From positions 1-44,890 of the forward strand of contig PBTO01000115.1 of the NCBI GenBank assembly GCA_002726595.1: a stretch of 44,890 nt of DNA, in the 5' to 3' direction. Position numbers and translations under genes: made by a program. Of this stretch, positions 20,536 through 43,916 are shown piece after piece. The stretch's first letter is position 1, and each line of letters begins with the position of its first letter. This DNA is from Gammaproteobacteria bacterium (GTDB taxonomy: Bacteria > Pseudomonadota > Gammaproteobacteria > Pseudomonadales > Pseudohongiellaceae). The notes under the pieces are model-generated. The model was not told where the DNA came from, did no database searches, and saw only the letters and a list, made by a program, of their open reading frames with translations.

Positions 20536-20549
20536 ACGGCTCCGTAGTA

Positions 20550-22853: not shown

Positions 22854-23938
22854 TGCTGGCAAACAGAATTGTGAAGAGCAGAATAGTAAGGCGACAGCCA
22901 ATCCTGGCCATGCTGGTACGCGTCGGCATCCTGTGCCTGGGAGTTTCGATGGCCGTGGCACAGCAAGCGCAGGACGAACTCACCAGTGACTATTTTCTCG
23001 ATCGGCCAGACTCGACAAAATACGCAGTCATAATGACCGGCCCCTCAGTGGGGGAAGAAACCACAGCGACTTTCAGACAATGGGCTTTCTCCCTGCACGA
23101 TATTCTGGCACGGGACTACGGTTATAGTTCTGACACCATCACCTTGCTGCTGGATCGCGGGGGGCAAGGTGAACCCGGCAGTGAGCGTATTGACGGCGCT
23201 TGTGATTTAGCGGGGATTCAACAGGGACTTGCCGCCGTGCAATCGCAGGTGAAATCCGGTGATCAAATTTCGATTTTCCTGATTGGACACGGCTCCGGTG
23301 TAGATGAAGAAGCCAAGTTTAATATTGTCGGTCCCGATATAACCGGCGGTGAGTTTGCCGATATGCTGGATGCCTTTTCCGAGCAGGACATTGTGATAAT
23401 AAATTCAACCAGTGCCAGCTATGGATTTTCCACCTCACTTTCTGACGAAGGGCGAGTAGTGATTTCTGCCACCCGCTCCCCGACAGAAAAGTATGATCCG
23501 GTATTCTCTCGCTATTTCATCGAAGCACTGGACAGTCGCAACGGTGATTATGATAAGAATAATCGTGTTTCCATGCTGGAAGCATTTAATTACGCGAAAA
23601 GCAGCGTGGAGCAATGGTATGAAGAGCAGGGGCGGCTGGCATCAGAGCACGCCGGTCTCGATGATAACGGTGATGCGCTGTTCACCCTGAGCCCAACTGT
23701 TGATGAAGCAGATGGTCGGATAGCTGAAATCGCCTATATCGACACCTTGTTGATTAATGACGAAAACCTATCCGAGGAAGCCATAGAATTAAAATCCCAA
23801 ATGCAGGAGCTTGAACGTTCGGTATTTATCTTGAGGGGGAGTAAAGCCGATTTTCTGGAAGCCGATTACTGGCAACAGATGGAAGAACTGCTGGTTGATC
23901 TGGCGCGGACAACAGGACGATTCAATGAGACAAAATAA
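22853..23938 (+). CDS. Exported legumain/peptidase-C13-like (clan CD fold) protein lacking a catalytic cysteine
   Basis: The start ATG overlaps the previous stop (TGATG at 22851-22855), and a signal-like leader ends at AVAQQ. YAVIMTGPS...TITLLLD...ISIFLIGHGS...IVIINSTSASYGF...VVISATRSPTEKY parallels legumain blocks. The His is kept (codon 23288-23290), but there is no Cys after it. Confidence 0.5.
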   Translation: MLANRIVKSRIVRRQPILAMLVRVGILCLGVSMAVAQQAQDELTSDYFLDRPDSTKYAVIMTGPSVGEETTATFRQWAFSLHDILARDYGYSSDTITLLLDRGGQGEPGSERIDGACDLAGIQQGLAAVQSQVKSGDQISIFLIGHGSGVDEEAKFNIVGPDITGGEFADMLDAFSEQDIVIINSTSASYGFSTSLSDEGRVVISATRSPTEKYDPVFSRYFIEALDSRNGDYDKNNRVSMLEAFNYAKSSVEQWYEEQGRLASEHAGLDDNGDALFTLSPTVDEADGRIAEIAYIDTLLINDENLSEEAIELKSQMQELERSVFILRGSKADFLEADYWQQMEELLVDLARTTGRFNETK

Positions 23939-26627
23939 GCAAAAGTCACACATTTTAGTATTGGCACTTGTCCTTGGCAGTGTTTGCTCCCTGCAGGCTA
24001 TTGCGCAGGACGATATTGCTACTGGTGAGTCTGCCCTGTACCGGGGGGAACAACTCTTGTTGAACGGCTCCTACGCCGCCGCAAGTGATGTTTTTCTCCT
24101 GGCCGATGGTCTGGATCGAAATGAAGGTATAGTTGGGGCTAGTAAGGCCTACGCTCTGACCGGCAACTACGTCCAGGCGATGAGGGTATGCGAGGAAGCC
24201 ATAGAAGACGGAGATTATGCACGTTTCCCGCTAATCAGCACGCAGTTGGCAGAAGTCAAGCGGGCTGTGGGTGAATCCAGTGAAGCGCTTGCGATACTGA
24301 GTTCGGTAATCGAAGAGCAATATGAAGCGCCAGTTCGCACACTTGTGCAGTACGGTAGCCTGCTACAGTTTGTCGGACAGAAGCAGGAAGCATTTGAATT
24401 TCTTGATCGGGTAATTCAGCGTTACAACAATGGCCTGGTATTTAGTTCTGAAGATGTTGCCATGGTGGCTCTGGCAAGTTGGCTGCTGGATAATTTTCAT
24501 GATGCCAATAGCCTGTTTAATGAGGCCACGCGTGCCAATCCCAATAATCTTGAAGCCCATACTCTGTGGGGCGATTTATTCCTGGAAAAATACAATGCAT
24601 CCGATGCTGAGCGTTCCTATCAGGCGGCGCTGGATCTAAACCGCCGCTACGTCCCGGCATTGGTAGGTATTACCAAGGTCGTCGGTGATGAGAGAGCGAT
24701 TCAGCGGGCGCTGGCTATCAATCCGCGCTATGTACCGGCACTCGAAGCCTATGGGCAGTTATTGCTGCTCAATAACCGCAAAGAAGAAGCGCAGAGTATT
24801 TTCGATCAGGTTCTGGCCATCAATCCAGAATCCTTGAAAACTCTGAGTGTGCTGGCAGCACAGGCGATGCTGGAAGAGCGGCAGGAAGACTACGACGAGT
24901 TGCTGAGCAGGGTAGAAGCCTTCACTCCCAATAATCCCAAGTTCCTGGGTGATATTGCTGACACCCACGGCAATAGCTACCGGTTCACCGAGGCTGTCGA
25001 ATTTGCTCGTGCCGCGATTGCTGCAGACCCGCAGTACTGGCAGGGGTATACATTACTGGGAAGTAATCTGATTCGCCTGGGCGAGGAAGAAGAAGGCAAG
25101 GCAAATCTCGAAATTGGCTTTGAAAACGATCCTTTCAATGTAATGACTTCTAATATGCTAACGGTGTTTGACACCCTGGCTACCTATACAACCCAGGAAA
25201 GTGAGCACTTCAAGGTGCACATGAGCGAGCATGATGCAGATATACTCTGGCCCTATCTTGAGCCATTACTGGAAGAAGGCTGGACCACACTGACGGAGAA
25301 GTATAATTACGAACCGGAAAGTCCAGTACTAATCGAAATATTTGAGAAAACTGAAGACTTTGCAGTGAGATCGGTCGGCTTGCCCGATATTGGGCCATTA
25401 GTGGGAATTTGTTTCGGCAAGGTTATTACACTGATCTCGCCGGATACACTCACCGCCAACTGGCAGGAAATAGTCTGGCATGAATTCATGCATGTTATAA
25501 CATTACAGATGACAAACAATCGCATGCCGCGCTGGTTGTCGGAAGGCATCTCTGTCTGGGAAGAGCGGGAGGGAAGGCCGTACTGGGGCAGAAGCCAGGG
25601 CCTGGACCTGGTAAGAGCAGCGCAGCAGGACAAGTTGTTGCCCGTAGGTGAGCTAAATTCCGGTTTTACCGGCGCGCGGAATAATGCAGACCTCGGTTTT
25701 GCCTACTTCCAGTCCTATCTGGTAGTGGACTTTATCACCAGCGAATACGGTTTCGATAAACTGGTGGAACTGGTAGATCAGTATGGCCTGATCAAGGAAG
25801 ATAGCGAGAGATTCCAGGAAGTTTTCGGTCAATCACTGAATGCTTTCGACAGTGGCTTTAGTGCCTGGATATCGCGTCGAGTGGAAGAAATTAATGTCTA
25901 CGTTCATACCGAAGATGTGCCGGATGAAGGCGAGGGCCACGGTCACGGGGTAAGAGAAAATGCCAGTGCCATACTGGCTGAACTATATAATAATGCCTCG
26001 CTGAAGCAACTGATGCGTTCGCGAATCGAAGAGAATGCACGGGATTTTCAGGCTCATCTGCAACTCGGTATAGTTCTGTTCAAGGAAGAGGGTTTTATGG
26101 AGGCTAAGTTCTATCTGGAACAGGCCCACGAATTGTTACCAACCTATACAGGCTATCCCAGCCCAGCACTGGTACTGTCCCAGATTTATGAGCAGGAGGG
26201 CAATCGCCCCGCTCAGTTGGAACAACTTGAAATACTGGTAGAGAATCAACAGCATGACTATGACTCGGCGATGATTCTGGCTGAGGCGGCCCTGGAAGGC
26301 GGCGACACTGAAGCGGCAGAATATTATATCGACCGGGCAATCCAGGTCGATCCTTACAGGTCGGACGTGCATGAGCTCAAAGCCAGGTTTGCCGAATCCA
26401 CCGACGATAGCGAACTGGCAGTAACCGAGTATGAAGTGCTGGTAAAACTGGAAATAAACGATCCAGTAGAGGCAAGGACAAACCTGGCGGAGGCGTATTT
26501 GAAAAATGGCCAGGTGCAACAGGCGAAACAAAATATATTGAGTGCGTTGGAAATTGCACCCAGCTACGAGCGGGCTCAGCAGGTATTATTGCAATCTGTG
26601 GATCAAGGTGATGCGCCCACTAATTAA
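23925..26627 (+). CDS. TPR-repeat protein with an embedded peptidase-MA (gluzincin, Peptidase_MA_2-like) domain
   Basis: The start overlaps the upstream gene by 14 nt and the signal peptide ends at LQAIAQD. TPR-like helical repeats lie on both sides of WHEFMHVITLQMTNNRMPRWLSEGISVWEE (HExxH plus a downstream Glu). Confidence 0.7.
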   Translation: MRQNKQKSHILVLALVLGSVCSLQAIAQDDIATGESALYRGEQLLLNGSYAAASDVFLLADGLDRNEGIVGASKAYALTGNYVQAMRVCEEAIEDGDYARFPLISTQLAEVKRAVGESSEALAILSSVIEEQYEAPVRTLVQYGSLLQFVGQKQEAFEFLDRVIQRYNNGLVFSSEDVAMVALASWLLDNFHDANSLFNEATRANPNNLEAHTLWGDLFLEKYNASDAERSYQAALDLNRRYVPALVGITKVVGDERAIQRALAINPRYVPALEAYGQLLLLNNRKEEAQSIFDQVLAINPESLKTLSVLAAQAMLEERQEDYDELLSRVEAFTPNNPKFLGDIADTHGNSYRFTEAVEFARAAIAADPQYWQGYTLLGSNLIRLGEEEEGKANLEIGFENDPFNVMTSNMLTVFDTLATYTTQESEHFKVHMSEHDADILWPYLEPLLEEGWTTLTEKYNYEPESPVLIEIFEKTEDFAVRSVGLPDIGPLVGICFGKVITLISPDTLTANWQEIVWHEFMHVITLQMTNNRMPRWLSEGISVWEEREGRPYWGRSQGLDLVRAAQQDKLLPVGELNSGFTGARNNADLGFAYFQSYLVVDFITSEYGFDKLVELVDQYGLIKEDSERFQEVFGQSLNAFDSGFSAWISRRVEEINVYVHTEDVPDEGEGHGHGVRENASAILAELYNNASLKQLMRSRIEENARDFQAHLQLGIVLFKEEGFMEAKFYLEQAHELLPTYTGYPSPALVLSQIYEQEGNRPAQLEQLEILVENQQHDYDSAMILAEAALEGGDTEAAEYYIDRAIQVDPYRSDVHELKARFAESTDDSELAVTEYEVLVKLEINDPVEARTNLAEAYLKNGQVQQAKQNILSALEIAPSYERAQQVLLQSVDQGDAPTN

Positions 26628-27480
26628 TCAGAGATGCCTCAAATTGGTAAACCGTTGCAGAAGATTACTGGTATTTTTATCTCTGCTGTTGCTGATGCCT
26701 GCGGCATCGGCCCAGGTATTGCTATTCGGTTCCAACGAAGGTCTTGCTATCTATGGTACCGATATCACGGAATTTACCTGGGTTCGAGGTCGCTACACAA
26801 ACCACGGTGGTGGGCGAGGACGTGGACGTGGATATGGCCGACGCGGTGGCTGGTGGGATACCGACTATCCTGACTCGGACGAAAATTTTCTCAGGGGCGT
26901 TCAGCGTTACACCAATATCGATACGAACCCGCGTAATCACGACTTCGTTGAGTTGACCGACCCCAGGCTGTTTGAGCATATCTTCCTTTATATGAATTGG
27001 AAACGTGTTCCCATCGGCTCCACCTTTAGCGGACCCAATTTTACGCCTGAAGAAATTGAAGCACTGCGTGAATTCATGTTCCGTGGTGGATTTGTTATGG
27101 TGGACGATTTTTGGGGGCAGCCCCATCTTGATGACATGTTTATGGAAATGAACAAGATATGGCCGGACCGAGAGATTATTCAGCTCAATACCAGCCATGA
27201 AATATTTCACACTTTCTTCGATATTGACCAGTTGGCTCAGGTTCCAGGACGCATGGTAACCTGGGATCTCGGTGGCTATTTCTCGCTGGATGATCCGAAC
27301 TATCCACCCGCTGTCTATGCCGTACTCGACGACGATGGGCGGGTAATGATGGTTGCCAATTACAATACCGATCTCGGAGATGGGTGGGAACATACTTTCT
27401 ACGAACCCTACCCAACCAAGTACACGAACGAAGCCTATAAGATAGGCATTAATTTTTTAATCTATGCATTTAGTCACTGA
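26611..27480 (+). CDS. DUF4159-like protein with an RG-rich segment
   Basis: The start overlaps the upstream gene by 17 nt and a signal or anchor ends at PAASAQ. The segment GGGRGRGRGYGRRGGWWDTDYPDSDENF...LTDPRLFEHIFLYMNW...EEIEALREFMFRGGFVMVDDFWG fits my recollection of DUF4159. Confidence 0.6.
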   Translation: MRPLINQRCLKLVNRCRRLLVFLSLLLLMPAASAQVLLFGSNEGLAIYGTDITEFTWVRGRYTNHGGGRGRGRGYGRRGGWWDTDYPDSDENFLRGVQRYTNIDTNPRNHDFVELTDPRLFEHIFLYMNWKRVPIGSTFSGPNFTPEEIEALREFMFRGGFVMVDDFWGQPHLDDMFMEMNKIWPDREIIQLNTSHEIFHTFFDIDQLAQVPGRMVTWDLGGYFSLDDPNYPPAVYAVLDDDGRVMMVANYNTDLGDGWEHTFYEPYPTKYTNEAYKIGINFLIYAFSH

Positions 27481-27496
27481 AAGATAGGAACCACCC

Positions 27497-28747
27497 ATGG
27501 CAGAAGAAGAAGTAGAAGCAGCAGCAAAAGTAGCAGAATCAGAAGAAGTAGCTGAAGCGGCTGCATCGGAAGAAGTAACCGAAGCAGCGGAAGAGGCCGA
27601 GGCGACAGAAGCAGAAGAAGTATCCGAAGCAGCTGAGGCGGCGGGAGCAGAAGAAGTAGCCGAAGTTACAGAAGCAGCTGAGGCGGCGGGAGCAGAAGAA
27701 GTAGCCGAAGTTACCGAATCAGCAGATGCGGACGAAGTATTGGAAATTGAAAGTGAGGACGATCTGCTGCTGGTAAAGAAAATGCAGGACGGCAGGGATC
27801 AAATTGTTGGCGAAATAAAGAAAATAATTATTGGCCAGGAAGAGATTATCGATGAGTTGCTTATAGCCCTGTTTGCCGGTGGTCACTGTCTGGTAACCGG
27901 TGTTCCCGGTTTGGCGAAAACACTTTTGATCAAGACTGTTGCCGATATCCTGGAAGTTGACTTCAGCCGGATCCAATTTACACCCGATCTGATGCCGGCC
28001 GATGTTGTCGGTTCGGAAATAGTAGAGGAAACCAGCGGAAAACGGAAACTGAAATTTGTCAAAGGTCCTATTTTTACCAGCATCCTGCTCGCTGATGAAA
28101 TTAATCGAACACCGCCCAAGACCCAGTCCTCGTTGCTGGAGGCGATGGAAGAGAAGCAGGTTACGGCGGCTGGCAAAACCTATCCCATGCTTGCGCCCTT
28201 CTTCGTGCTGGCTACTCAGAACCCGATTGAACTGGAAGGCACCTATCCGCTACCGGAGGCCCAGTTGGACCGGTTCATGTTCAAGATTGAGCTGGGTTAT
28301 TTATCTGAAGAGGATGAGGTTACAGTGGTAAGCACCACTACCCAGACTAACGAAGCCACACTTTCACATCCACTAGGTGGTAAAGATATTCTTGAGTTTC
28401 AACGCATAGCCCGCCAGGTTCCTGCTGCCCAGGCAGTAATTCGATATGCAGTAAGACTGGTACACGCTTCACGCCCACAAAATGAGTCTTCGCCCGATTT
28501 TATAAAAGACTGGGTAAGTTGGGGAGGGGGAATTCGCGCCTCACAGAATCTTATTCTTGCCGGTAAGGTCAGAGCCTTGCTGCTTGGCCGCTACAATGTT
28601 TCCTATGGTGATGTGCGTGCCCTGGCCCATTCGGTAATGCGTCATAGAATTTTACTGAATTTTCATGCCGAGGCGGAACGGGTCACAACCGATGATGTGA
28701 TAACACGATTGCTGGAATCGGTGCCAGAACCGTCATCTGATATTTAA
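27497..28747 (+). CDS. moxR: MoxR-type AAA+ ATPase with an ~85-aa acidic Ala/Glu repeat N-terminal extension
   Basis: Walker A is GVPGLAKT and Walker B is ILLADEINR. The blocks QSSLLEAMEEKQVT and VLATQNPIELEGTYPLPEAQLDRF are typical of MoxR/AAA_3. Confidence 0.9.
   Translation: MAEEEVEAAAKVAESEEVAEAAASEEVTEAAEEAEATEAEEVSEAAEAAGAEEVAEVTEAAEAAGAEEVAEVTESADADEVLEIESEDDLLLVKKMQDGRDQIVGEIKKIIIGQEEIIDELLIALFAGGHCLVTGVPGLAKTLLIKTVADILEVDFSRIQFTPDLMPADVVGSEIVEETSGKRKLKFVKGPIFTSILLADEINRTPPKTQSSLLEAMEEKQVTAAGKTYPMLAPFFVLATQNPIELEGTYPLPEAQLDRFMFKIELGYLSEEDEVTVVSTTTQTNEATLSHPLGGKDILEFQRIARQVPAAQAVIRYAVRLVHASRPQNESSPDFIKDWVSWGGGIRASQNLILAGKVRALLLGRYNVSYGDVRALAHSVMRHRILLNFHAEAERVTTDDVITRLLESVPEPSSDI
27626..27715 (+). 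repeat. Perfect 45-bp tandem duplication in the moxR 5' extension
   Basis: GAAGCAGCTGAGGCGGCGGGAGCAGAAGAAGTAGCCGAAGTTAC occurs at 27626-27669 and again at 27671-27714. Each copy encodes EAAEAAGAEEVAEVT. Confidence 0.9.
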
Positions 28748-28773
28748 GTAGCCTCTGATCAGCAGACATCCCT

Positions 28774-29667
28774 ATGACTGAGACTCTCAATTTTCTGGAC
28801 CCCAAGGTGCTCGCCAGTTTGCATAATCTGGAGCTGCGCGCACGGGTTGTAGTGGAGGGGTTTTTATCCGGATTACACAAGAGTCCGCATCGCGGTTTTA
28901 GCGTTGAGTTTAACGATTATCGCCATTATCAACGGGGCGATGATATGCGCCATGTTGACTGGAAACTCTACGCTCGAAGTGAAAAATTATATATAAAGCA
29001 GTACGAAGATGAGACCAATGTGCGTTGCGTGATCGTTCTGGATACCAGCGCTTCGATGTCTTATACCTCAGGTGGCATAAGCAAGCTCGATTACGGGATC
29101 ACGCTGGCTTCTTCGCTGGCTTATTTCATCATGCGGCAACGGGATGCGGTTGGCCTCATTACCTTCGATGATCAGATTAGAGATTATATTCCGGCAAAAT
29201 GCAGACAGCCGCATTTAATGCGAATATTACGTACGCTCGCCCACGTAGAGGCTGGAGAAAAGACCGATGCGGTGAAGCCGCTTACAGATCTGGCGGCCTC
29301 TCTCCGGAAAAAAAGCATGGTCGTGTTAATCACTGATATGCTGGATGACGAGACACGGGTCATAAATACCTTGCAGAACTTGAGAGGAATGGGCAATGAT
29401 GTCATTGCGTTTCATGTCATGGATGATGCCGAGCTAAATTTTCCGTTTAATGAAGCCTCTGAGTTTATTGATATGGAGAACAATGAATCCTACATCACCT
29501 CACCAGCGGCAATACACAAGTCTTACATGGAAAATTTGAATGAGTTCCTCGAGTTCTGCAAAAAAAAGTGTCAGAGCAGTGGTGTAGATTACTGTCTGCT
29601 GAATACGGCCGAGCCACTGGATGAGGCGCTTTCATCCTACATGACCAAACGCAGCAAGAGTTTCTAG
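28774..29667 (+). CDS. DUF58 (VWA-like) protein, MoxR partner
   Basis: The hallmark block HKSPHRGFSVEFNDYRHYQRGDDMRHVDWKLYARSEKLYIKQYEDE is present. The MIDAS-like motif is VIVLDTSASMS. Confidence 0.85.
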   Translation: MTETLNFLDPKVLASLHNLELRARVVVEGFLSGLHKSPHRGFSVEFNDYRHYQRGDDMRHVDWKLYARSEKLYIKQYEDETNVRCVIVLDTSASMSYTSGGISKLDYGITLASSLAYFIMRQRDAVGLITFDDQIRDYIPAKCRQPHLMRILRTLAHVEAGEKTDAVKPLTDLAASLRKKSMVVLITDMLDDETRVINTLQNLRGMGNDVIAFHVMDDAELNFPFNEASEFIDMENNESYITSPAAIHKSYMENLNEFLEFCKKKCQSSGVDYCLLNTAEPLDEALSSYMTKRSKSF

Positions 29668-29681
29668 GGTAACACTGAACA

Positions 29682-31706
29682 ATGGTCTTTCTCTCACCTC
29701 TATTTCTATTTGGCTTATTGGCAGCGGCACTTCCGATCGCGATTCACCTCATTCGCAAGGAAAAACCACCGAAAATGATGTTCAGTACCATTCGATTTTT
29801 GAAGAAAACGTCGAAGAAACTGATCCTGTTTCAACAGATTCAGCAGTGGCTTCTGCTCCTGTTGCGTGCGGTTGTTATTATGCTGCTGGTAATTGCATTT
29901 GCCAGGCCCCTGGTCGATCAATCGGTATCAAGATTACTGGATGTAGAGCCCCAATCGGTAGTAATTCTTCTGGATAACTCCATGAGTATGCGCTATGGCG
30001 AGAGTTTTGTGGACGCTAAAGCCGCCGCAGTTGAAATTCTGGATGATTTATCCCCAGGTGATGAAGCGGCACTGGTCCTGTTCTCCAATTCTGCCGAAAC
30101 TGTTCGTGAGTTAACAACCGATGTTGATAGCCTGAGAAGTTTTGTTGAGGGTATCGGTCAGCCAGGCTACGGGACCACTCGATATATGCCTAATCTGCGG
30201 CTGGCAGATCAGTTGCTGGAATCATCACGATTTGAAAACCGGGCAGTCTATATGATTTCTGACTATCAGGAAGAAGGACTGGATGGTAGCGATGATAATT
30301 GGAAACTGGCACCCGGCGTAGGCTTCACCGGTATTGATGTGGGTAGCGAGGAAAGTACCAATTTGGTGCTAACCGATGTCAGATCCCCTGAAACCTTGCT
30401 GGAAGATTCTGCCGAGCAGCAGATATTAGTTCGGGTCAGAAGTTCCGGGACGGTACATGTTAGCCAGGGTGAGGTCACACTGGGAATTGATGGCAACCTG
30501 GTGGACCGGGTTCCTGTAGATCTGGCAGATCAATCGGAACAGGTGGTTGATTTGACGGCTGTATTCGACACAGAAGGGACTCATGTTGGAGAGGTAACCC
30601 TGAATGGGGACAGCTTTGCCGTTGACAATAAATTTTATTTCACCGTGGATGTGCTGCCAAAAATCAGGGTATTGGTGGTTAATGGTGAAGCATCAGATGA
30701 CTGGTTTGATGATGAGGGGCACTGGTTTGGGCTTGCCGTTAGTAGTGCAGCAGAATCACCCTTCACTCTTGAATCAGTCGAACCAGCCGCGCTGAGTGCC
30801 GCGTCGTTACGCCAGAATGATGTGGCCGTCCTGCTTAACGTCGGGGATTTGAGTGGATCGCAGGCTGCCGCAGTCAGCTCCTACGTCGAGTCGGGTGGAG
30901 CTCTGCTGATTGCTCCAGGTGACAGAGTAGATGCTGATCGTTTTAATCAACAATTTAGCGAGATTTCTCCAGCATCGCTGCAGTTCCAGGAATCTTCCGG
31001 CCGGGATGATTATCTTGTGATCGCTGATTTCAATAGGCGTCATCCAATATTAAGACCACTGGAAGCTGACTGGTCTGTACGATTTCAGGGGCATTGGACC
31101 ATGACACCAGATGCTGAAGCCGATGTGCTGATGCAATTCGATAATTCTGAACCGGCTTTGGTAGAACGGTCTGTGGGAGAAGGCAAAGTGATACTATTCG
31201 CCTCGACCATGGATCTGGAATGGAACAATTTACCCTTGCAGGCGCTGTTTCTCCCCTTTGTGCATGAGACGCTCAGGCATCTCGTACAGCCTCCTACGAA
31301 GCAACGAGCATACCAGATAGGTGATACCTTCAGTGTGGTATTGGACGGTCAGACGAATGAGGTTCAGGCGCAGGGGCCTGATGGTAATGCCCTGGAATTT
31401 ATCGATGAGAACTTTGTTGTAAATGCGGCAACTCCCGGATTGATTCGTGCAACAGTTGACGGAGTACCACAGACTTATGCTGTCAATGTAATCCCGGAGG
31501 AGTCACGCTTTGCAAAAACCGCCGTTAGCAACCTTTATGACACGATAATTAATCCAGACACCGAGCCATTTCAATCCCAGGCAGTCAGAACCGCTCAACT
31601 CATTGAAGAACTGGAGCGTCCCCAGCGTATTTGGTGGTGGATTTTGAGTCTTGTGATGTTGTTATTAGTGGCCGAAGTCCTAGTTGCTAACAGAACCTAC
31701 CGTTAG
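29682..31706 (+). CDS. BatA-type protein: N-terminal double-TM aerotolerance-regulator domain, VWA domain and C-terminal TM anchor
   Basis: The N-terminus is MVFLSPLFLFGLLAAALPIAIHLI...STIRFL. The MIDAS motif is VVILLDNSMSMRYG. A suspected GATase1-like segment reads IRVLVVNG...GGALLIAPG. The C-terminal helix is WWWILSLVMLLLVAEVLV. Confidence 0.8.
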   Translation: MVFLSPLFLFGLLAAALPIAIHLIRKEKPPKMMFSTIRFLKKTSKKLILFQQIQQWLLLLLRAVVIMLLVIAFARPLVDQSVSRLLDVEPQSVVILLDNSMSMRYGESFVDAKAAAVEILDDLSPGDEAALVLFSNSAETVRELTTDVDSLRSFVEGIGQPGYGTTRYMPNLRLADQLLESSRFENRAVYMISDYQEEGLDGSDDNWKLAPGVGFTGIDVGSEESTNLVLTDVRSPETLLEDSAEQQILVRVRSSGTVHVSQGEVTLGIDGNLVDRVPVDLADQSEQVVDLTAVFDTEGTHVGEVTLNGDSFAVDNKFYFTVDVLPKIRVLVVNGEASDDWFDDEGHWFGLAVSSAAESPFTLESVEPAALSAASLRQNDVAVLLNVGDLSGSQAAAVSSYVESGGALLIAPGDRVDADRFNQQFSEISPASLQFQESSGRDDYLVIADFNRRHPILRPLEADWSVRFQGHWTMTPDAEADVLMQFDNSEPALVERSVGEGKVILFASTMDLEWNNLPLQALFLPFVHETLRHLVQPPTKQRAYQIGDTFSVVLDGQTNEVQAQGPDGNALEFIDENFVVNAATPGLIRATVDGVPQTYAVNVIPEESRFAKTAVSNLYDTIINPDTEPFQSQAVRTAQLIEELERPQRIWWWILSLVMLLLVAEVLVANRTYR

Positions 31707-39562: not shown

Positions 39563-40627
39563 ATGAAAATACCAGCAAAGCTGTATCTATCTATTTGCGC
39601 AACTATTTTAGCCCTGACTTTATCCCCGTCGGCATTAATTGCGCAAAACCTCGTAGTGGAGTCCGATACGCACCGCTTCAATGAAATCGCAGAAGGCGTC
39701 TGGTTTGTATCCGGTAACGGGACAGTTCAGACCATGAGTAATGCGATGGTATTGGTCGGCGAGTTCGATGTGCTTGTGGTGGACTCCCATGTGACGCCCG
39801 CAGCGTCCCGGGCTCTGCTAGATTCCCTGTCGGTAATCACCGACAAACCCGTACGCTATCTGGTCAACAGCCATTACCATTTTGATCATGCTCATGGTAA
39901 TCAGTCGTTTCCGCAAGGCGTTGAAATTATCGGCCACAGTTTTACCCGCGCCAAGCTTAGCGGCGAGATCGGTAATGTGTTAGAGGAAAGTACCTTCAAG
40001 AGTTTCTCCGATGGCGTGCCGACACTGGTGGCAAATCTGGAAACCCAGGCTGCTGCGGAATCAGACCCGGCACGCAAGGTGGCACTGGAAGAAAGACACC
40101 GGGTGCAGCGGGACTATATGAACGCGATACAGGAAATTGTCCCCACGCCGCCGAATATTACGCTCGATACCACTATGACTCTATTCCAGGTCGTTGCCCG
40201 GGGCAGTCGTGAAATCCAGTTGCTGCACCTGGGCCGGGCCCATACCGGTGGCGACGTGGTGATTTATTTACCCCAGGAAGGAGTCGTGTTCACTGGAGAC
40301 ATGATGTTGCCTGGCCTGGCTTATATGGGTGATGCCCACGTTGATGAGTGGCCGGTGACTCTCGAAGCCTTGAAGGGTCTGGATTTTGACGTAGTACTCC
40401 CGGGGCATGGTGCACCTTTCAGGAGCAGGGATCCAATCGCTAACTTTCAGGCCTATCTCACCGACCTCTGGCAGAAAACCGGTGATATGCACCGGCGCGG
40501 AGTTAGCGCAGAGCAGGCTGCCGAGCAGATAGACATGACTAACCATCGTGATAATTATGCGCAGCTTAGAGGCCCAGGAGTAGATCCCAGGGCAATTCGG
40601 CGTATATATGAGCTGCTGAATAATTAG
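39563..40627 (+). CDS. Exported metallo-beta-lactamase-fold hydrolase (second copy of the fold in the window)
   Basis: The signal peptide ends at LIAQN. HxHxDH is present as NSHYHFDHAHGN, with a later HTGGD and PGHG. Confidence 0.8.
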   Translation: MKIPAKLYLSICATILALTLSPSALIAQNLVVESDTHRFNEIAEGVWFVSGNGTVQTMSNAMVLVGEFDVLVVDSHVTPAASRALLDSLSVITDKPVRYLVNSHYHFDHAHGNQSFPQGVEIIGHSFTRAKLSGEIGNVLEESTFKSFSDGVPTLVANLETQAAAESDPARKVALEERHRVQRDYMNAIQEIVPTPPNITLDTTMTLFQVVARGSREIQLLHLGRAHTGGDVVIYLPQEGVVFTGDMMLPGLAYMGDAHVDEWPVTLEALKGLDFDVVLPGHGAPFRSRDPIANFQAYLTDLWQKTGDMHRRGVSAEQAAEQIDMTNHRDNYAQLRGPGVDPRAIRRIYELLNN

Positions 40628-40653
40628 TCAGACTGTTGGTTCAAGCGTTACTG

Positions 40654-40681
40654 AAAGGGATCTTGAACAGATCCCTTTTTT
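40654..40681 (+). terminator. Rho-independent terminator after the MBL gene, overlapping the stop codon of the convergent gene
   Basis: AAAGGGATC (40654-40662) and GATCCCTTT (40670-40678) form a perfect 9-bp stem with a 7-nt loop. The T-run continues to 40681. Confidence 0.75.
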
Positions 40682-42453
40682 CATCCTGCCACTCTCGGGC
40701 CAGCCAGAATTTCATTGAGTAAGAGATTATTCGGGTTGTTGCAGAGGTGTTTGCGATAATCAGCCACAAAGGTTGACCAGGTACTACGCTGATGCAGTTT
40801 TTCGATGTTTGCGTAGTCATTGTATTTTGACATGACAAAGACTTTAGCCTTGCAACAAATATACTGCTCCACAAATGAGTTAATATCATCCTCATGCTCG
40901 ATATCATAATATTTGAATTTCCCTAACGGTGAATTCATCAGTTGGCCGATTTTATTTGTGGCGATGAAGACGTTAGGGGGATCAATATGCTCCTGTTTTG
41001 CTAGTTCGAGCAATGCACTATGGATATTCTCTTCATTGAAATTGGCATGACTTTCGAGTGATTTATTGGCCATAACGTCAGGATAGCGAAGGTGTACGGC
41101 GATATAGTCATTTTTCAGGCTGGCCTGGATGAATTGTTCACCATGACTCTTTATGGCGTCAGAAAAATCAAGATTTCCGCAGATTTCACTGTAAAGAGAT
41201 TCGAAAGCCGGATTTGTCTTGCAGTCATGGCATCCGTTGATCAGGCATTCTGAGATAGCGGTGTTATTAAACAAATGTTTAACGCACAATACTGGCTCAT
41301 CAATTGCTGACAATTCGCTATAATCTTCGATGCTTCTAAAATGCCGCTGATGCAAAAGCTGTTCTTTGGAGTCGTGACCCAGTAGCGTCTCCACCTTCAG
41401 TTTCTTATTCAGATAAGCACCGTGCAATACATAAGTCTTGTCAGGAATAAGTTCGCGATTGTCTGCATTAATATCTAAAACCTTATCTGGAATTTTGTAG
41501 TGGAACAGTTCGGAAAAATTCCAGCTACACCTTCCCTCTGTGTAGTGCTGGTATACCGGCGGAAGTAACACTTTTCTCTTGAGTATCGCTCCCATGAGAA
41601 GGGCCTCCTTAAAGCCCATAATCTGATTCCCCGGACCACTGTCCGTTGAAATTAGCAACAGATATTGATCGTTGCCATTGACAGCTTCATCTTTTGAAGT
41701 TCTGGATGCAGCCGATTCAATCTCCAATGTGGCATCAATTCCCGAGAAGCCTTGTGGTATTTCCAGTCGCTGGCTTTTCTGTTTGAGCAAAGTCAAATCC
41801 GGATCGGTTTGTTCGAGTGACAACGCGGCATGATAATGTTTAATCACACTACTTGGGGATATAGGCACAATATCTTGTCCGGTAATTTGGGGTGTATATT
41901 GATTTAGATCGCGACCGGATTGAAGTCCGTTTTCCTGGTCAAACATAAACGAGATCAACATATGTCTCACTCCGGAGGTAACCGGTCTTACTTCGTGGAG
42001 TCGCGCGGGCCGAAAAATAATGGCACTGCCTTTTTCGAGAATAAAGCTACGATCAATTTCGGCAAAATACAGTTCGCCGCCCTGATAATCGGCCGGATCC
42101 GATAGTGCAATGACAAAGCTCAGTTGCCTGTGCTCCATTCCTCCCTGAATATCGGTATGGGCATTATAATGACCTCTGTCTTCGCCCTTGTAGTAGCCCA
42201 CTTTCCAGCGCTCCCTGTATCTAACCGAAACGCCAAAATCCTGCTCGAAGATTTGCTTTATGCTATTTAAAATCAGTGAATCAATGGGAGCGCAATCCTT
42301 CCTTGAAAGAAAACAGTCCTGGCGTATCTTCTGAACGGGATCGACTCTCTTTCCCACTTTTGACTCTTCAAGCTCCAGCTTATTGGCCAGATCGAAAACA
42401 TAATCAATCATTTCATCTGAGAGAATTTTTTCTACGATGACAATCTGATTCAT
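40681..42453 (-). CDS. Fusion protein: N-terminal PKHD/prolyl-4-hydroxylase-like 2OG-Fe(II) dioxygenase plus C-terminal O-fucosyltransferase-like (O-FucT family) glycosyltransferase
   Basis: The N-terminal half has HTD (HxD), LSFVIALSDPADYQGGELYF and LHEVRPVTSGVRHMLISF, as in YbiX/PiuC-type hydroxylases. The C-terminal half has STDSGPGNQIMGF, YIAVHLRYPDVMA, VFIATN and QYICCKAKVFVMS, resembling the three conserved fucosyltransferase-superfamily blocks. Confidence 0.6.
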   Translation of the reverse strand: MNQIVIVEKILSDEMIDYVFDLANKLELEESKVGKRVDPVQKIRQDCFLSRKDCAPIDSLILNSIKQIFEQDFGVSVRYRERWKVGYYKGEDRGHYNAHTDIQGGMEHRQLSFVIALSDPADYQGGELYFAEIDRSFILEKGSAIIFRPARLHEVRPVTSGVRHMLISFMFDQENGLQSGRDLNQYTPQITGQDIVPISPSSVIKHYHAALSLEQTDPDLTLLKQKSQRLEIPQGFSGIDATLEIESAASRTSKDEAVNGNDQYLLLISTDSGPGNQIMGFKEALLMGAILKRKVLLPPVYQHYTEGRCSWNFSELFHYKIPDKVLDINADNRELIPDKTYVLHGAYLNKKLKVETLLGHDSKEQLLHQRHFRSIEDYSELSAIDEPVLCVKHLFNNTAISECLINGCHDCKTNPAFESLYSEICGNLDFSDAIKSHGEQFIQASLKNDYIAVHLRYPDVMANKSLESHANFNEENIHSALLELAKQEHIDPPNVFIATNKIGQLMNSPLGKFKYYDIEHEDDINSFVEQYICCKAKVFVMSKYNDYANIEKLHQRSTWSTFVADYRKHLCNNPNNLLLNEILAGPRVAG

Positions 42454-42596
42454 AGAGAGCTCGATATTCTCGCCGTCAGCATTAAAATAAAATTAACAGC
42501 TCAAAAAATCTCGGGTAGGGAACTTTAGACCCAAACTCCTGGCCCTTCCTGAAACCTGTTGATGATTTCAGGTCGGGACAGGTTTTAGCCTGGATT

Positions 42597-43916
42597 TTAA
42601 TCGAGAGTCTGATAACCCATGACAGAGAAAGGTTTATTGCTATTGCTGTCGATGATGGCCTGCATGGCAGTTACCCCTAGCTCCTGCCGCACATTGAGAT
42701 GGCTGTAGGAAGTGATTTGCGTCATCATGATGCCGATCATCTCTTCTACCGGATCGATCCAGAACACGGTGCCCCAGGCCCCACCCCAGGTAAAGCTGCC
42801 GGGAGTCAATGGATCTCTTGAAGTCCCCGCGTTGTTCAGCACACCAAAACCCAGGCCGAAACCATAGCCAGGACCGCGGACGTAGACTTCAGCATCGCCA
42901 CTGTGATTGCTGATCATCAGGTTAACCGTTTTCGGGCTCAGCAGTCTCACACCGTCCAGCTCTCCACCATTGAGAATCATCTGGCTGAACCGCCAGTAAT
43001 CGGAAATCGTCGACGATAATCCAGCGACGCCGCCAAAGTAGGTGGTTTCCCGATACTCCGGTGCACGTGACAGCTCAATAGTTTGATTTGCTCCACTTGG
43101 ACTGTAAACCGCCGCTACGCGGTCTATCTTATCCCGCGGAACATTGTAGAACGTATCGCCCATTTGCAAGGGATCAAATATTTTCTCCTGCAGATAATCA
43201 ACCAGCGGTTCACCCGAAATTCTTTCCACTAACAGGGCCACGTAATCGGTTGAACTGCCGTATTGCCAGGTGTCGCCCGGTTGAAAATTCAGCGGCAGAC
43301 TGGCTCTTTTTACAATCGTTTCCTCCAGAGTCGCTTCACGCGAGAGCATGGCAACCTCATCGTCGTTTAACGCCGTTCGAGCCGGGTCGACACCTGAGGT
43401 ATGGGACAGGACATGGCGAAATGTAATCGGTCGCTTTGCCGGGACTCTGTAAGTGCCATTGTCATCATTGACGATGACTTCCTTACCCTCCAGTTCCGGT
43501 ATCCAGTTGGTAATGGGATCGGTGAGTAAAAAGTGACCTTCTTCGTACAGCATCATCAAGGCCGTTGAAACAATAGGCTTGGTCATGGACATGATGACGA
43601 AGATGGAGTCATCGGTCATCGCCTCGCCGGTTTCCCTGTTCTTCCAGCCCTGTGACTCCAGGTGAATAACCTTGCCCTTGCGGGAAATCAACGAGATCGT
43701 ACCCGCCAGGAGATCCTTATCGATATAGCGCTGCATTGCAGTACTGACTCTCTCCAGCCGTTCTGAGGAAACTCCCGTGTTCTCCGGCGTGTCTAGCGGG
43801 AGACCATCTGCCAGCGACAGGGAGGACAGGCATAAACCTGTTGCGGCCAGCAGGCATTTGCAGTAATTAATCTGTATGTATTTGTCGAATTGCGCGAGCA
43901 TAATTAACCCCTTCAT
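42597..43916 (-). CDS. Exported serine hydrolase of the beta-lactamase / penicillin-binding (class C-like) family
   Basis: The SxxK motif is SMTKP, preceded by a signal-like leader. The length and layout fit the Beta-lactamase family. An alternative start is Met 43901. Confidence 0.75.
   Translation of the reverse strand: MKGLIMLAQFDKYIQINYCKCLLAATGLCLSSLSLADGLPLDTPENTGVSSERLERVSTAMQRYIDKDLLAGTISLISRKGKVIHLESQGWKNRETGEAMTDDSIFVIMSMTKPIVSTALMMLYEEGHFLLTDPITNWIPELEGKEVIVNDDNGTYRVPAKRPITFRHVLSHTSGVDPARTALNDDEVAMLSREATLEETIVKRASLPLNFQPGDTWQYGSSTDYVALLVERISGEPLVDYLQEKIFDPLQMGDTFYNVPRDKIDRVAAVYSPSGANQTIELSRAPEYRETTYFGGVAGLSSTISDYWRFSQMILNGGELDGVRLLSPKTVNLMISNHSGDAEVYVRGPGYGFGLGFGVLNNAGTSRDPLTPGSFTWGGAWGTVFWIDPVEEMIGIMMTQITSYSHLNVRQELGVTAMQAIIDSNSNKPFSVMGYQTLD

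Follow-up and report, generated by a model that had tools for sequence, protein, structure and literature searches.

The fusion gene and its insertion site

The locus lies in a 44.9-kb stretch of gammaproteobacterial DNA, the whole of which was analyzed and is referred to here as the window. It consists of a single gene placed between conserved MBL and serine-hydrolase genes (Table 1). As claimed in the original prediction, the gene was recovered as one ORF, and all of the oxygenase and glycosyltransferase motifs quoted for its two halves were found in the encoded protein, which is entered at NCBI as MBQ14970.1, "hypothetical protein CMQ17_11320." The start codon is backed by aligned homologues that begin with MNQIV or MNKIL. 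An AlphaFold model of the protein (mean pLDDT, 82.7) showed two confident domains, and residues 209 to 260 between them had a pLDDT below 50. In the alignment, the length of this linker differed among family members.

Table 1. Features of the fusion gene and its surroundings
Feature	Position	Strand	Description
Conserved flanking MBL gene	39563-40627	+	Convergent with fusion gene
Inserted segment compared with related genomes	40622..42596	.	blastn synteny to L030 and L028; lowest G+C of any 1,975-bp window in the 44.9 kb
Hairpin AAAGGGATCT-N5-AGATCCCTTT, then T-run	40654..40681	+	Between convergent MBL gene and fusion gene; z = -3.4; inverted repeat I21, 10 nt, 100% complementary
Fusion gene	40681..42453	-	Complete ORF, 590 aa, stop codon within coordinates
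C-terminal GT-B glycosyltransferase domain, POFUT1/GT65-like	40696..41670	-	Residues 262-586; Pfam, Foldseek, profile alignment
Interdomain linker, predicted disordered, fast-evolving	41671..41868	-	About residues 196-261; model pLDDT, pN
N-terminal Fe(II)/2-oxoglutarate dioxygenase domain, P4H/PKHD type	41869..42453	-	Residues 1-195; Pfam, PDB profile, Foldseek
Stable hairpin	42538..42585	-	In 143-nt spacer from serine-hydrolase gene to fusion-gene start; -21.6 kcal/mol; z = -4.2; inverted repeat I3
Conserved flanking serine-hydrolase gene	42597-43916	-	

Comparison by blastn with related genomes revealed an empty site in the Pseudohongiellaceae genome L030, in which the two flanking genes are 44 bp apart, compared to 1,975 bp in the source. 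In L028, the same flanking genes are parted solely by an unrelated 152-aa ORF. The empty site in related genomes bears out the proposal that the gene was acquired horizontally as a self-contained single-gene module. Neither a direct-repeat target duplication nor a transposase or integrase was found in the inserted segment. An imperfect 17-nt inverted repeat is present at the insertion junctions and may be due to chance.

With 43.3% G+C, the fusion gene is below both of its neighbors (53.0% and 51.9%) and deviates from the window mean of 50.5% (standard deviation, 2.9) with a z score of -2.5. The G+C counts made by hand on single lines of sequence (23/60 at 41281, 19/60 at 41461, and 35/60 at 42781) were exact, though these lines were extremes. 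The view of the gene as compositionally distinct was upheld by the G+C deviation in the whole-window scan but not by its synonymous codon usage, which was unremarkable (rank 14 of 18 among the large genes), nor by its GC3 of 0.459, with lower values elsewhere in the window. The AT-richness of the gene comes mostly from the amino acid composition of its product. Between the source gene and the L002 gene, pS was 0.72 (saturated), and pN was lower in the two domains (N, 0.12; C, 0.15) than in the linker (0.33). This comparison shows strong purifying selection on both domains within bacteria. That selection, together with the ameliorated codon usage and the saturation at synonymous sites, marks the acquisition as old.

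Two hairpins flank the gene. The one adjoining its stop codon has a stem of 10 to 11 bp with a U-run next to it on the plus strand and looks like an intrinsic terminator of the plus-strand gene. The second hairpin, with no U-run directly after it, is a possible terminator or attenuator. Neither of the two matched any Rfam family. The gene had been described as bracketed by a strong terminator (40654-40681) and a structured spacer (42548-42585); both hairpins are real by their z scores, but the first one was not listed in a consensus terminator scan.

The two catalytic domains

Oxygenases of the family in question are recognized by an H-x-D...H iron triad and, about 10 positions past the distal histidine, a basic residue that binds 2-oxoglutarate (2OG). 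In the N half, the Pfam profile 2OG-FeII_Oxy_3 (PF13640) matched residues 88 to 169 with 43.7 bits (cut-off, 27), and the corresponding motifs are H99-T-D101, L117SDPADYQGGELYF130, and L152HEVRPVTSGVR163. The iron triad H99/D101/H153 and R163 at the 2OG-binding position were invariant in 17 fusion members and in 53 further members of the oxygenase subfamily. A profile search of the PDB with the N half returned 3dkq (1.5e-12), PiuC (2e-10), the P4H of B. anthracis (BaP4H; 2.6e-10, nearly full-length), and PBCV-1 vCPH (2.4e-6), and Foldseek found 3dkq, PiuC, PHD2, vCPH, and BaP4H at E values of 1e-9 to 1e-11. PHD2 was matched by Foldseek with an E value of 1e-9 and a TM score of 0.67, whereas the sequence profile search of the PDB gave no PHD/PhyA entry at E values up to 10, with collagen-type P4Hs present. 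Residues 1 to 190 were modeled with a pLDDT of about 85 to 95 and adopt a double-stranded beta-helix fold in the model.

The best sequence matches of the N domain were PKHD hydroxylases (PiuC, YbiX, and Sbal_3634) and small P4Hs (BaP4H, vCPH, and the Chlamydomonas enzyme CrP4H), with which it has in common the H-x-D...H...R motif set, the signature PV..G.R, and the double-stranded beta-helix. These enzymes are single-domain proteins, whereas the fusion protein has two domains and scores far under the PiuC/YbiX equivalog cut-offs (NCBIfam PRK05467, 52.1 bits versus a cut-off of 143), with core residues 88 to 169 alone aligning. The protein is therefore not a PiuC/YbiX orthologue, and by sequence its oxygenase is orthologous to no characterized enzyme. 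For the PKHD group itself, we know of no physiological substrate.

The C half matched O-FucT (PF10250) with 41.4 bits (cut-off, 31.5) at residues 266 to 544, corresponding to profile positions 3 to 312 of 326. Both Pfam matches thus exceed the curated cut-offs, in agreement with the P4H-like and O-FucT-like identities proposed at the outset. The glycosyltransferase (GT) motifs are GPGNQ (residues 273 to 277), AVHLRYPD (452 to 459), VFIATN (495 to 500), and CCKAKVFVMS (533 to 542). GPGNQ, H454 and R456, ATN (498 to 500), and R556 with the adjoining STWS (557 to 560) were invariant in the 17 diverse members, so that the alignment retains the catalytic motifs of both domains throughout. The C half models confidently as a GT-B fold, as predicted, with POFUT1 as its closest match in the PDB: the top 21 Foldseek matches were all POFUT1 (E values of 1e-14 to 2e-11; TM scores of 0.61 to 0.65 relative to the target), the best being 3zy6 (E value of 1e-14; TM score of 0.63 relative to the target). 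In the profile search of the PDB, C. elegans POFUT1 (CePOFUT1) was matched at 1e-8. The profile alignment placed the GPGNQ, HLR, and ATN motifs opposite GRFGNQ, VAVHLRN, and VFVASDK of CePOFUT1, and the conserved arginine expected in the HLR block, R456, was both invariant and aligned with the HLR of this enzyme. The identity to POFUT1 is just 15 to 16%, too low for the sequence to reveal the donor sugar. On the precedent of the superfamily, the putative donor is a GDP-sugar such as GDP-fucose; some PF10250 members use other donors. As the oxygenase domain begins at residue 3 (strand E3-7 in the model), there is no space for a signal peptide or a membrane anchor.

Distribution of the fusion and alternative domain partners

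A search by domain architecture, which had been suggested as a check, showed the P4H + O-FucT fusion to be rare yet real. It was found in 32 clusters among 5.8 billion proteins, and both full domains were present in 55 representatives among the best 150 of 1.84 billion. No description of this architecture was found in the literature searched. The fusion is retained across about 30 to 38% identity, with inserts between the domains in several members. In P0050 the domain order is reversed, and this is also the case in P0070, but there the GT match is weaker and fragmented. Each domain also occurs standalone, as many oxygenases of ~200 aa and GTs of ~330 to 360 aa, including GT genes in L014 and L015.

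The family is chiefly one of the Nucleocytoviricota (giant viruses of marine protists), and purifying selection has apparently retained it in these viruses as well as in bacteria. Most members are located on giant-virus contigs, in contexts that hold PolB, D5 primase, TFIIS, and ubiquitin enzymes. The bacterial holders are few and marine: the Pseudohongiellaceae-like source gammaproteobacterium, Pseudohongiella, Granulosicoccaceae, and a few others. In a midpoint-rooted neighbor-joining tree, the source protein was placed in a small bacterial clade with 88% bootstrap support. This clade lies inside a more varied radiation of sequences from AT-rich genomes, of which the members checked for context are viral; on the C domain alone, support for the bacterial clade was only 35%. 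The G+C content of the fusion gene was lower than that of its flanks in all seven bacterial contexts, whereas the gene blends into the viral contigs (20 to 30% G+C). The transfer probably proceeded from the virus/eukaryote gene pool to bacteria.

The same oxygenase subfamily was also found in 53 multidomain members without O-FucT. PF11397 was present in 20 of them, an FkbM methyltransferase in 2, and a tubulin-tyrosine ligase (TTL) in 1. About one-quarter of the other oxygenase partners were non-glycosyltransferases, including AhpC/TSA and an alpha/beta-hydrolase-like tail. Going by its Pfam description, we take PF11397 to be the GT60 family of Gnt1, the Skp1 hydroxyproline GlcNAc-transferase. 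The function of Gnt1/GT60 is documented (PMC6939170). That the oxygenase subfamily is fused to this type of GT as well supports a coupling of hydroxylation and glycosylation. For the PF11397 members P0073 and P0140, a PDB sequence search gave no GT match. Two further candidates were rejected. GT60 genes in viruses are not a general partner of the oxygenase, which was nearby in 1 of 80 loci, and the unannotated tails of Synechocystis P0029 and others are not cryptic GTs, as profile-profile comparisons with both GT profiles gave probabilities below 1%. The P0029 tail contains a GCSSG motif of the alpha/beta-hydrolase type.

Proposed function and relation to known systems

We consider it fairly probable that the protein is a cytoplasmic bifunctional enzyme that hydroxylates and then glycosylates an acceptor, belonging to a mainly giant-virus family that is present as a single-gene insertion in a few marine bacteria. 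The N-terminal P4H/PKHD-type dioxygenase would add a hydroxyl group to the acceptor, most likely to a proline (or another residue) of a protein, and the C-terminal POFUT1-like GT-B domain would transfer a sugar from a nucleotide sugar onto the new hydroxyl. The flexible linker would tether both domains, and the product of the first reaction would therefore be passed to the second domain. The order of the reactions, the protein nature of the acceptor, the type of residue, and the donor sugar are all presumed here; peptidyl-prolyl hydroxylase activity is a candidate suggested by the similarity to BaP4H, vCPH, and CrP4H. The consecutive action of the two enzyme types put forward in the original prediction is strengthened by the domain-fusion evidence, but we still infer it.

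All-against-all BLAST of the ORFs up to 5 kb from the fusion gene at 28 loci revealed no conserved neighbor or substrate gene common to the seven bacterial contexts, apart from the synteny of close relatives, which agrees with the earlier statement that no substrate gene is adjacent. Among the ORFs of the window, no proline-rich or collagen-like one was credible as an acceptor, and no Skp1-like gene was seen in the loci examined. In seven viral loci an ORF of ~250 aa adjoins the fusion gene; it had no Pfam match and, in a fused form, a sub-threshold GT47-like match, and we regard it as a lead only.

The same chemistry could be directed at a non-protein acceptor, such as a cell-envelope glycan, a lipid, or a small molecule (natural product or nucleotide sugar), with the O-FucT-like domain acting like the plant polysaccharide-building enzymes of PF10250; we judge this rather unlikely. 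A glycan acceptor is conceivable because some plant GTs of PF10250, namely GT106 and related ones, have polysaccharides as their substrates (PMC3522684, PMC3558879). FkbM partners, which are typical of glycan and natural-product tailoring, accompany the oxygenase in L009 and P0085 and the GT domain alone in P0105, and the giant-virus copies are often close to other putative sugar-handling ORFs, a weak indication. However, in none of the seven bacterial contexts does the gene lie in a cluster for LPS, capsule, or biosynthetic genes, and the closest solved relatives of both halves (POFUT1/2, BaP4H, vCPH, CrP4H, and PHD2) act on polypeptides. The characterized members of the alternative partner GT60 likewise glycosylate polypeptides, and TTL, joined to the oxygenase in one member, is a protein-modifying family.

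It is improbable that the two domains are fused but functionally independent, for example as a PiuC/YbiX-like oxygenase with its own substrate and a GT acting on ordinary Ser/Thr, or that one of them is inactive in bacteria. The standalone occurrence of each domain, such as the GT genes of L014 and L015, and the rarity with which viral GT60-type genes adjoin this oxygenase (the same 1 of 80 loci) would fit such independence, but the fusion has been kept across its whole identity range, occurs in either domain order, and has variants with other GT partners; in addition, the catalytic residues of both domains are all invariant, and purifying selection within bacteria is similarly strong on both.

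A role in nucleic acid hypermodification, in which a base would be hydroxylated as by JBP/TET and then glycosylated as in base J or glucosyl-5hmC, would explain a single gene without a partner or substrate gene and would suit a self-contained module moving between viruses and bacteria. One relative, P0091, carries a SAP DNA-binding domain at its end and matches Tet_JBP below the threshold (21.8 bits versus 34.9). We nevertheless hold this role to be very improbable: the source protein had no Tet_JBP or AlkB match at E values up to 1, TET structures appeared only at E values of about 2 in the PDB profile search, compared to 1e-10 to 1e-12 for P4H/PKHD, and the GT is POFUT-like, unlike JGT or the phage DNA glucosyltransferases. 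Finally, an artefact of assembly or gene calling, such as contig chimerism or a frameshift missed between two genes, can practically be dismissed: the gene comes from a MAG contig, in which errors may occur in principle, and nothing else was found in favor of it, whereas the two halves form a single gene in dozens of independent bacterial and viral assemblies, the source ORF itself recurs undivided in separate ENA, JGI, Logan, NCBI, and Tara assemblies, 20 contigs carry a 590-aa variant of the same 90%-identity cluster, the 55 divergent representatives share the fusion, and the flanks are syntenic with related genomes up to both junctions.

Bifunctional hydroxylation-glycosylation, our preferred function for the fusion protein, follows the same logic as base J formation by JBP1/2 with JGT and as phage TET with GT, in which a 2OG oxygenase makes a hydroxyl group that a GT glycosylates. 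These systems, however, use another oxygenase clade (TET/JBP) and other GT families, and their similarity to the fusion protein is not significant. LH3 (PLOD3) and mimivirus L230 also combine a hydroxylase and a glycosyltransferase in one chain and include a giant-virus representative. In LH3/L230, the sugar is transferred by a GT-A domain, with UDP-sugars as donors. Their domain order is GT, accessory domain, and lysyl hydroxylase, whereas that of the fusion protein is the opposite, with a GT-B fold; the similarity of the oxygenase cores is marginal (E values of 0.03 to 0.1 over about 55 residues), and the substrate of LH3/L230 is collagen, for which the window holds no counterpart ORF. POFUT1 (GT65) and POFUT2 (GT68) have the same fold as the C domain, with conserved and alignable GNQ, HxR (catalytic Arg), and (A)T(N/D) motifs. 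They are ER-lumenal and fucosylate existing Ser/Thr in folded EGF/TSR modules, in contrast to the fusion protein, which is found in bacteria and viruses, is without a signal peptide, and has its GT behind an oxygenase.

Protein hydroxylation is known to be coupled to glycosylation in collagen, in plant cell-wall proteins, and in the Skp1 oxygen-sensing pathway of protists. We know of no description of such coupling in bacteria; also to our knowledge, Skp1, the acceptor of the protist pathway, is absent from bacteria, and GT65 has been reported from the secretory pathway of eukaryotes alone. According to PMC11570480, which cites van der Wel 2019, the single-chain P4H/Gnt1 enzyme of Pythium (PhyA/Gnt1) is a characterized precedent. 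Like the proposed fusion enzyme, the Skp1-type enzyme is one cytoplasmic chain that unites an Fe(II)/2OG oxygenase of the P4H superfamily with a GT capping the new hydroxyl, and its GT family, PF11397/GT60, is the one seen in sister architectures of the fusion's oxygenase subfamily (20 of 53). The two differ in that the GT of the fusion is a POFUT1-like GT-B of PF10250 and not PF11397/GT60, in that its oxygenase is by sequence closer to collagen-type P4H/PKHD than to PHD/PhyA, and in the host, a bacterium or giant virus and not a protist.

A tentative extension of this comparison, possible at best, is that free-living marine bacteria carry out in their cytoplasm an O2- and 2-oxoglutarate-dependent glycosylation of hydroxy-amino acids resembling the Skp1 pathway, by a GT65-like enzyme captured as a single gene from the giant-virus pool and acting on a conserved protein. 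As such an enzyme would work without a cotransferred partner, its acceptor would have to be a protein conserved between protist/virus hosts and bacteria, e.g., a translation factor or a ribosomal protein. If true, bacteria would have their first described case of O-glycosylation of the hydroxyproline type. Once found, the acceptor would define a posttranslational modification new to bacteria and giant viruses, assign the POFUT-like (GT65) fold a role in the prokaryotic cytoplasm, and put on record a functional exchange of genes between Nucleocytoviricota and bacteria. As the fusion protein is small, soluble, and self-contained, it is directly testable. Bifunctional hydroxylase-glycosyltransferases as such are already known; the combination of P4H and O-FucT is a new form of them, in which the gene family, common to giant viruses and a handful of marine bacteria, represents a one-polypeptide version of hydroxylation-glycosylation with a different GT fold.

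Domain architecture of the fusion protein

The ORF listing returned the fusion gene as one ORF, and all motifs quoted in the original prediction are present in its translation. A Pfam search assigned 2OG-FeII_Oxy_3 to residues 88-169 (43.7 bits, cut-off 27) and O-FucT (PF10250) to residues 266-544 (41.4 bits, cut-off 31.5), and the same two assignments were obtained when the halves were scanned separately. With NCBIfam the oxygenase core alone was matched, at 52 bits compared to a cut-off of 143 for the PiuC/YbiX equivalog. As a single-sequence query against the PDB sequences, the protein found the PKHD-type hydroxylases 3dkq and PiuC, with the N half only.

In an alignment of 17 full-length homologues (31-74% identity to the window protein), H99, D101, H153, and R163, which form the iron triad and the 2-oxoglutarate-binding Arg, were invariant. 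The same holds true for G273-P-G-N-Q277, H454, R456, A498-T-N500, E529-Q530, H554, R556, and S557-T-W-S560. The glycosyltransferase (GT) domain also contains a cluster of cysteines, C-x4-C-x2-C together with the invariant C425 (ISECLINGCHDC...EIC), which is kept in most members and missing from the AT-rich viral clade of the homologues P0025, P0027, and P0030; it may represent a metal site or a disulphide.

AlphaFold2 predicted from this alignment two confident domains (mean pLDDT 82.7) and a disordered linker (residues 209-260). When the predicted model was compared with the PDB by Foldseek, 21 POFUT1 chains ranked first (E 1e-14 to 2e-11, target-relative TM 0.61-0.65), followed for the N domain by 3dkq, PiuC, PHD2, collagen P4H, PBCV-1 vCPH, and B. 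anthracis P4H. The family profile run against the PDB sequences matched in the N domain 3dkq (E 1.5e-12), PiuC (2e-10), BaP4H (nearly full-length, 2.6e-10), vCPH (2.4e-6), and Chlamydomonas P4H (7e-4). A profile limited to the C domain matched CePOFUT1 at 1e-8, pairing SGPGNQ with GRFGNQ, IAVHLRY with VAVHLRN, and VFIATNK with VFVASDK; the next matches were POFUT2 (2e-4) and FUT8 (about 0.2). In BFVD, the best structural match (E 3e-32) was an environmental protein of Megaviridae, whose annotation is GDP-fucose protein O-fucosyltransferase. With POFUT1 heading the Foldseek matches of the predicted model and CePOFUT1 those of the C-domain profile, the proposed GT-B/O-FucT-like fold of the C half is supported, and the conserved Arg expected in the HLR block is R456, which aligns with the HLR of CePOFUT1. 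The finding is real, and its interpretation as a fusion of a P4H-like oxygenase with an O-FucT-like GT stands.

The window is a 44,890-bp MAG contig in NCBI, and the fusion protein is listed there as MBQ14970.1, 'hypothetical protein'; near-identical copies either bear the annotation '2OG-Fe(II) oxygenase' or originate from Tara mesopelagic samples. A full-text literature search gave no description of a P4H/2OG-oxygenase plus O-FucT architecture. O-fucosyltransferase, prolyl, and hydroxyproline are not mentioned in a 2022 review of giant-virus glycans, and a 2023 pangenome paper merely notes PF13640 oxygenases in Mimiviridae and Phycodnaviridae (PMC10598087).

Positions of the fusion gene, its surroundings, and related features (L numbers are fetched genomic loci)
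Feature	Sequence	Position	Strand	Remarks
Fusion ORF	window	40681..42453	minus	590 aa
Cysteine cluster of GT domain	window	~41179-41253		residues ~401-425
Additional DNA	window	40622-42596
Inverted repeat, left arm	window	40628-40644
Inverted repeat, right arm	window	42596-42612
Serine-hydrolase gene	window	42597-43916	minus
blastn block 1	window	39649-40621		L030 10328-9356
blastn block 2	window	42597-43775		L030 9311-8133
Bat/MoxR-type cluster	window	16840-31706		same-strand
1023-aa ORF	L009	5889-8960
Standalone GT	L014	1248-2321
Standalone GT	L014	2360-3433
Standalone GT	L015	7998-9071
~250-aa ORF family	L019	2753-3517
~250-aa ORF family	L012	9910-10653
~250-aa ORF family	L010	12362-13105
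~250-aa ORF family	L015	3225-4892
~250-aa ORF family	three further loci
Run with fusion gene	L007	338-6823
Oxygenase plus tail	L008	8001-9344
GT60 plus oxygenase	L032	1758-3425

Occurrence in bacteria and giant viruses

A word-indexed search of 5.8 billion clusters returned only 32 relatives, nearly all unnamed and most with both Pfam domains, and in 1.84 billion representatives, searched exhaustively with a profile, 122 proteins reached E<=1e-30. Domains were mapped in homologues with HMMs cut from the 17-member alignment, and both full domains were present in 55 proteins among the best 150 of the 1.84 billion representatives. In P0050 the order is reversed, with the GT preceding the oxygenase; P0070 has this order too, but its GT match is weaker and fragmented. 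Several fusion proteins contain an interdomain insert, and in an ORF of contig PBDW01000005.1 (L009) an FkbM methyltransferase lies between the oxygenase and the O-FucT-like GT. The latter also occurs as a standalone protein of ~360 aa on two AT-rich viral contigs (L014 and L015), one labelled GVMAG and the other a 127.7-kb IMG/VR contig; the L014 copies are a tandem duplicate.

A pattern scan of prokaryotes with one genome per species (185,579 species) yielded only five loci, in a Pseudohongiella MAG, a Granulosicoccaceae MAG, a Gammaproteobacteria MAG, Synechocystis (oxygenase only), and a 'Pelagibacteraceae' MAG. Nine loci were found in the viral collection, eight of them on GVMAG-labelled contigs. 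The contexts of four homologues show giant-virus hallmarks: P0016 has a D5-type primase-helicase, TFIIS, and a ubiquitin-conjugating enzyme as neighbours, P0027 has DUF5760, P11_C, and UCH, and the syntenic P0012 and P0015 adjoin a 1538-aa B-family DNA polymerase, RNase III, ERCC4, and UCH. As the 'Pelagibacteraceae' contig L009 (MAG Pelagibacteraceae SP337) has 21% G+C and six syntenic genes in common with the GVMAG contig L017, it is probably of viral origin and mis-binned into a SAR11 MAG.

A ~250-aa ORF family with the pattern 'GRGFY-WKP ... GD-L-Y-DCG' is represented in seven viral loci, next to the fusion gene or close to it, and in L012 and L019 it follows immediately downstream. The L011 member of this family is without the pattern, and the L015 copy forms a fusion with a region that gave sub-threshold GT47/RXYLT1-like matches. 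A Pfam search of the family gave no match; it may encode another glycosyltransferase or some partner protein.

Insertion site, composition, and phylogeny

The serine hydrolase has thousands of relatives with 75-84% identity, and the named ones are labelled Pseudohongiellaceae, SAR86, or unclassified Gammaproteobacteria. Two loci, L030 (GCA_040879025.1, a Pseudohongiellaceae MAG) and L028, keep the wider synteny of AMP-dependent ligase, MBL, and serine-hydrolase genes, in L028 as far as a histidine kinase and a response regulator, and neither contains the fusion gene. In L030 the serine-hydrolase and MBL genes converge with 44 bp between them; in L028 an unrelated ORF of 152 aa occupies the space between the two. 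The two blastn blocks on L030 delimit the additional DNA of the window, which almost exactly coincides with the islet of the original prediction. No integrase, transposase, or target duplication was found in the inserted segment. At its junctions there is an inverted repeat with 13 of 17 positions complementary and the outer 7 nt perfect (TCAGACT/AGTCTGA), whose right arm forms the final codons of the serine-hydrolase gene; it may be a recombination scar or due to chance.

P0002 (L002, 70% identical) lies in the same chromosomal neighbourhood as the window, on the ammonium-transporter side; L002 lacks the serine hydrolase and has PhoU on the other side. The remaining bacterial members have unrelated contexts. 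In L007 (Gammaproteobacteria MAG SFB_Oligo_Co_135) the fusion gene follows an MltB-type lytic transglycosylase gene at a distance of 16 bp and shares a run of genes on one strand with those for a Vgb-lyase-like propeller, alanine dehydrogenase, and PPK2. A cluster elsewhere in the window, unrelated to the fusion gene, is a Bat/MoxR-type 'aerotolerance'-style operon comprising genes for a DUF4175 protein (1231 aa, strong A-over-T skew), VWA/GATase1-like and TPR/Peptidase_MA proteins, a MoxR-type AAA_3 ATPase, DUF58, and a BatA/VWA protein.

The additional DNA is the lowest-G+C 1,975-bp stretch of the whole 44.9 kb, and the fusion ORF has 43.3% G+C compared to a mean of 50.5% (sd 2.9) for the 29 other window ORFs (z = -2.5), in agreement with the proposed AT-rich islet. 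The three 60-nt G+C counts offered for it are exact, but they represent extreme lines. The GC2 of the ORF (0.320) is the lowest in the window, its GC3 (0.459) is not, and its synonymous codon usage is ordinary (rank 14/18 among large window genes); the AT-richness is thus largely a matter of which amino acids are encoded. Each of the two flanking hairpins folds significantly better than shuffled sequence (z = -3.4 and -4.2). The first has a T-run and lies between the convergent MBL and fusion genes; neither matched Rfam.

In a neighbour-joining tree of 53 fusion proteins (491 domain columns), the window protein belongs to a clade of eight sequences, six of which were context-checked as bacterial; the context of P0007 is not among these. 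The bootstrap value of this bacterial clade is 88% with both domains, 78% with the N domain alone, and 35% with the C domain alone. The clade (mean identity 53%) lies nested among sequences from AT-rich genomes that are more diverse (mean identity 38%) and viral wherever their context was checked. A second lineage from bacteria, L007, forms a branch of its own. The G+C content of the fusion gene is below that of its flanks in all seven bacterial contexts (e.g., 0.408 versus 0.515 in L001 and 0.433 versus 0.505 in the window), and on the viral contigs (20-30% G+C) the gene blends in. The simplest reading is that bacteria imported the gene from the gene pool of giant viruses or protists, a direction that we infer, since the tree is in substance unrooted.

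Comparison of the window gene with the L002 gene gave saturated synonymous sites (pS 0.72) and pN values of 0.12 for the oxygenase domain, 0.15 for the GT domain, and 0.33 for the linker. The saturated pS with low domain pN argues that purifying selection has long kept both domains inside bacteria, which fits the ameliorated codon usage. The fusion gene is best explained as a member of a mainly giant-virus family that was gained long ago, as a single gene, by a few marine bacteria.

Partners of the oxygenase and a candidate function

A census of 53 multi-domain representatives of the oxygenase subfamily without an O-FucT domain revealed as partners PF11397 'GlcNAc' (20 representatives), which we take to be the family of Gnt1, AhpC/TSA (12), FkbM methyltransferase (2), Tubulin-tyrosine ligase (1), and SAP (1). 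A tail that resembles an alpha/beta-hydrolase and contains a GCSSG motif recurs as a third partner, unrelated to either GT, in 12 representatives. One of these is WP_190598260.1 (P0029) of Synechocystis salina LEGE 00031, in which the oxygenase is followed by a ~250-aa tail with this nucleophile-elbow motif and whose gene (L008) is strongly AT-rich compared to its flanks (0.371 against 0.471). The tail of P0032 showed a weak UPF0227 match. Large multi-domain relatives containing GT60 and the oxygenase are P0113 (1340 aa), P0140, P0169 (1706 aa), and a protein encoded in L032. P0140 and P0169 have an additional AhpC/TSA peroxiredoxin, P0113 and P0169 have weak GT2 matches, P0169 also has a GT1-like domain, and P0113 has two oxygenase copies. 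Viral GT60-type genes are usually not near this oxygenase (1 of 80 loci).

The best-known members of the O-FucT and PF11397 GT families glycosylate hydroxyl groups of polypeptides. The repeated fusion of the oxygenase, in either order, to one of two GT families counts as classical domain-fusion evidence for both activities belonging to one pathway, and this pattern provides the main support for the putative hydroxylate-then-glycosylate mechanism. This support is limited by the recurrent hydrolase-like tail and by the rarity of the oxygenase near GT60-type genes on viral contigs. The window protein is best explained as a bifunctional hydroxylase-glycosyltransferase whose acceptor would most likely be a protein. 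Gnt1, the GT60 enzyme, puts GlcNAc on the hydroxyproline of Skp1 (PMC6939170). According to the account in PMC11570480, a PhyA/Gnt1 enzyme of Pythium ultimum has been characterized (van der Wel et al. 2019, Glycobiology 29:705), which, like the window fusion, is a single chain.
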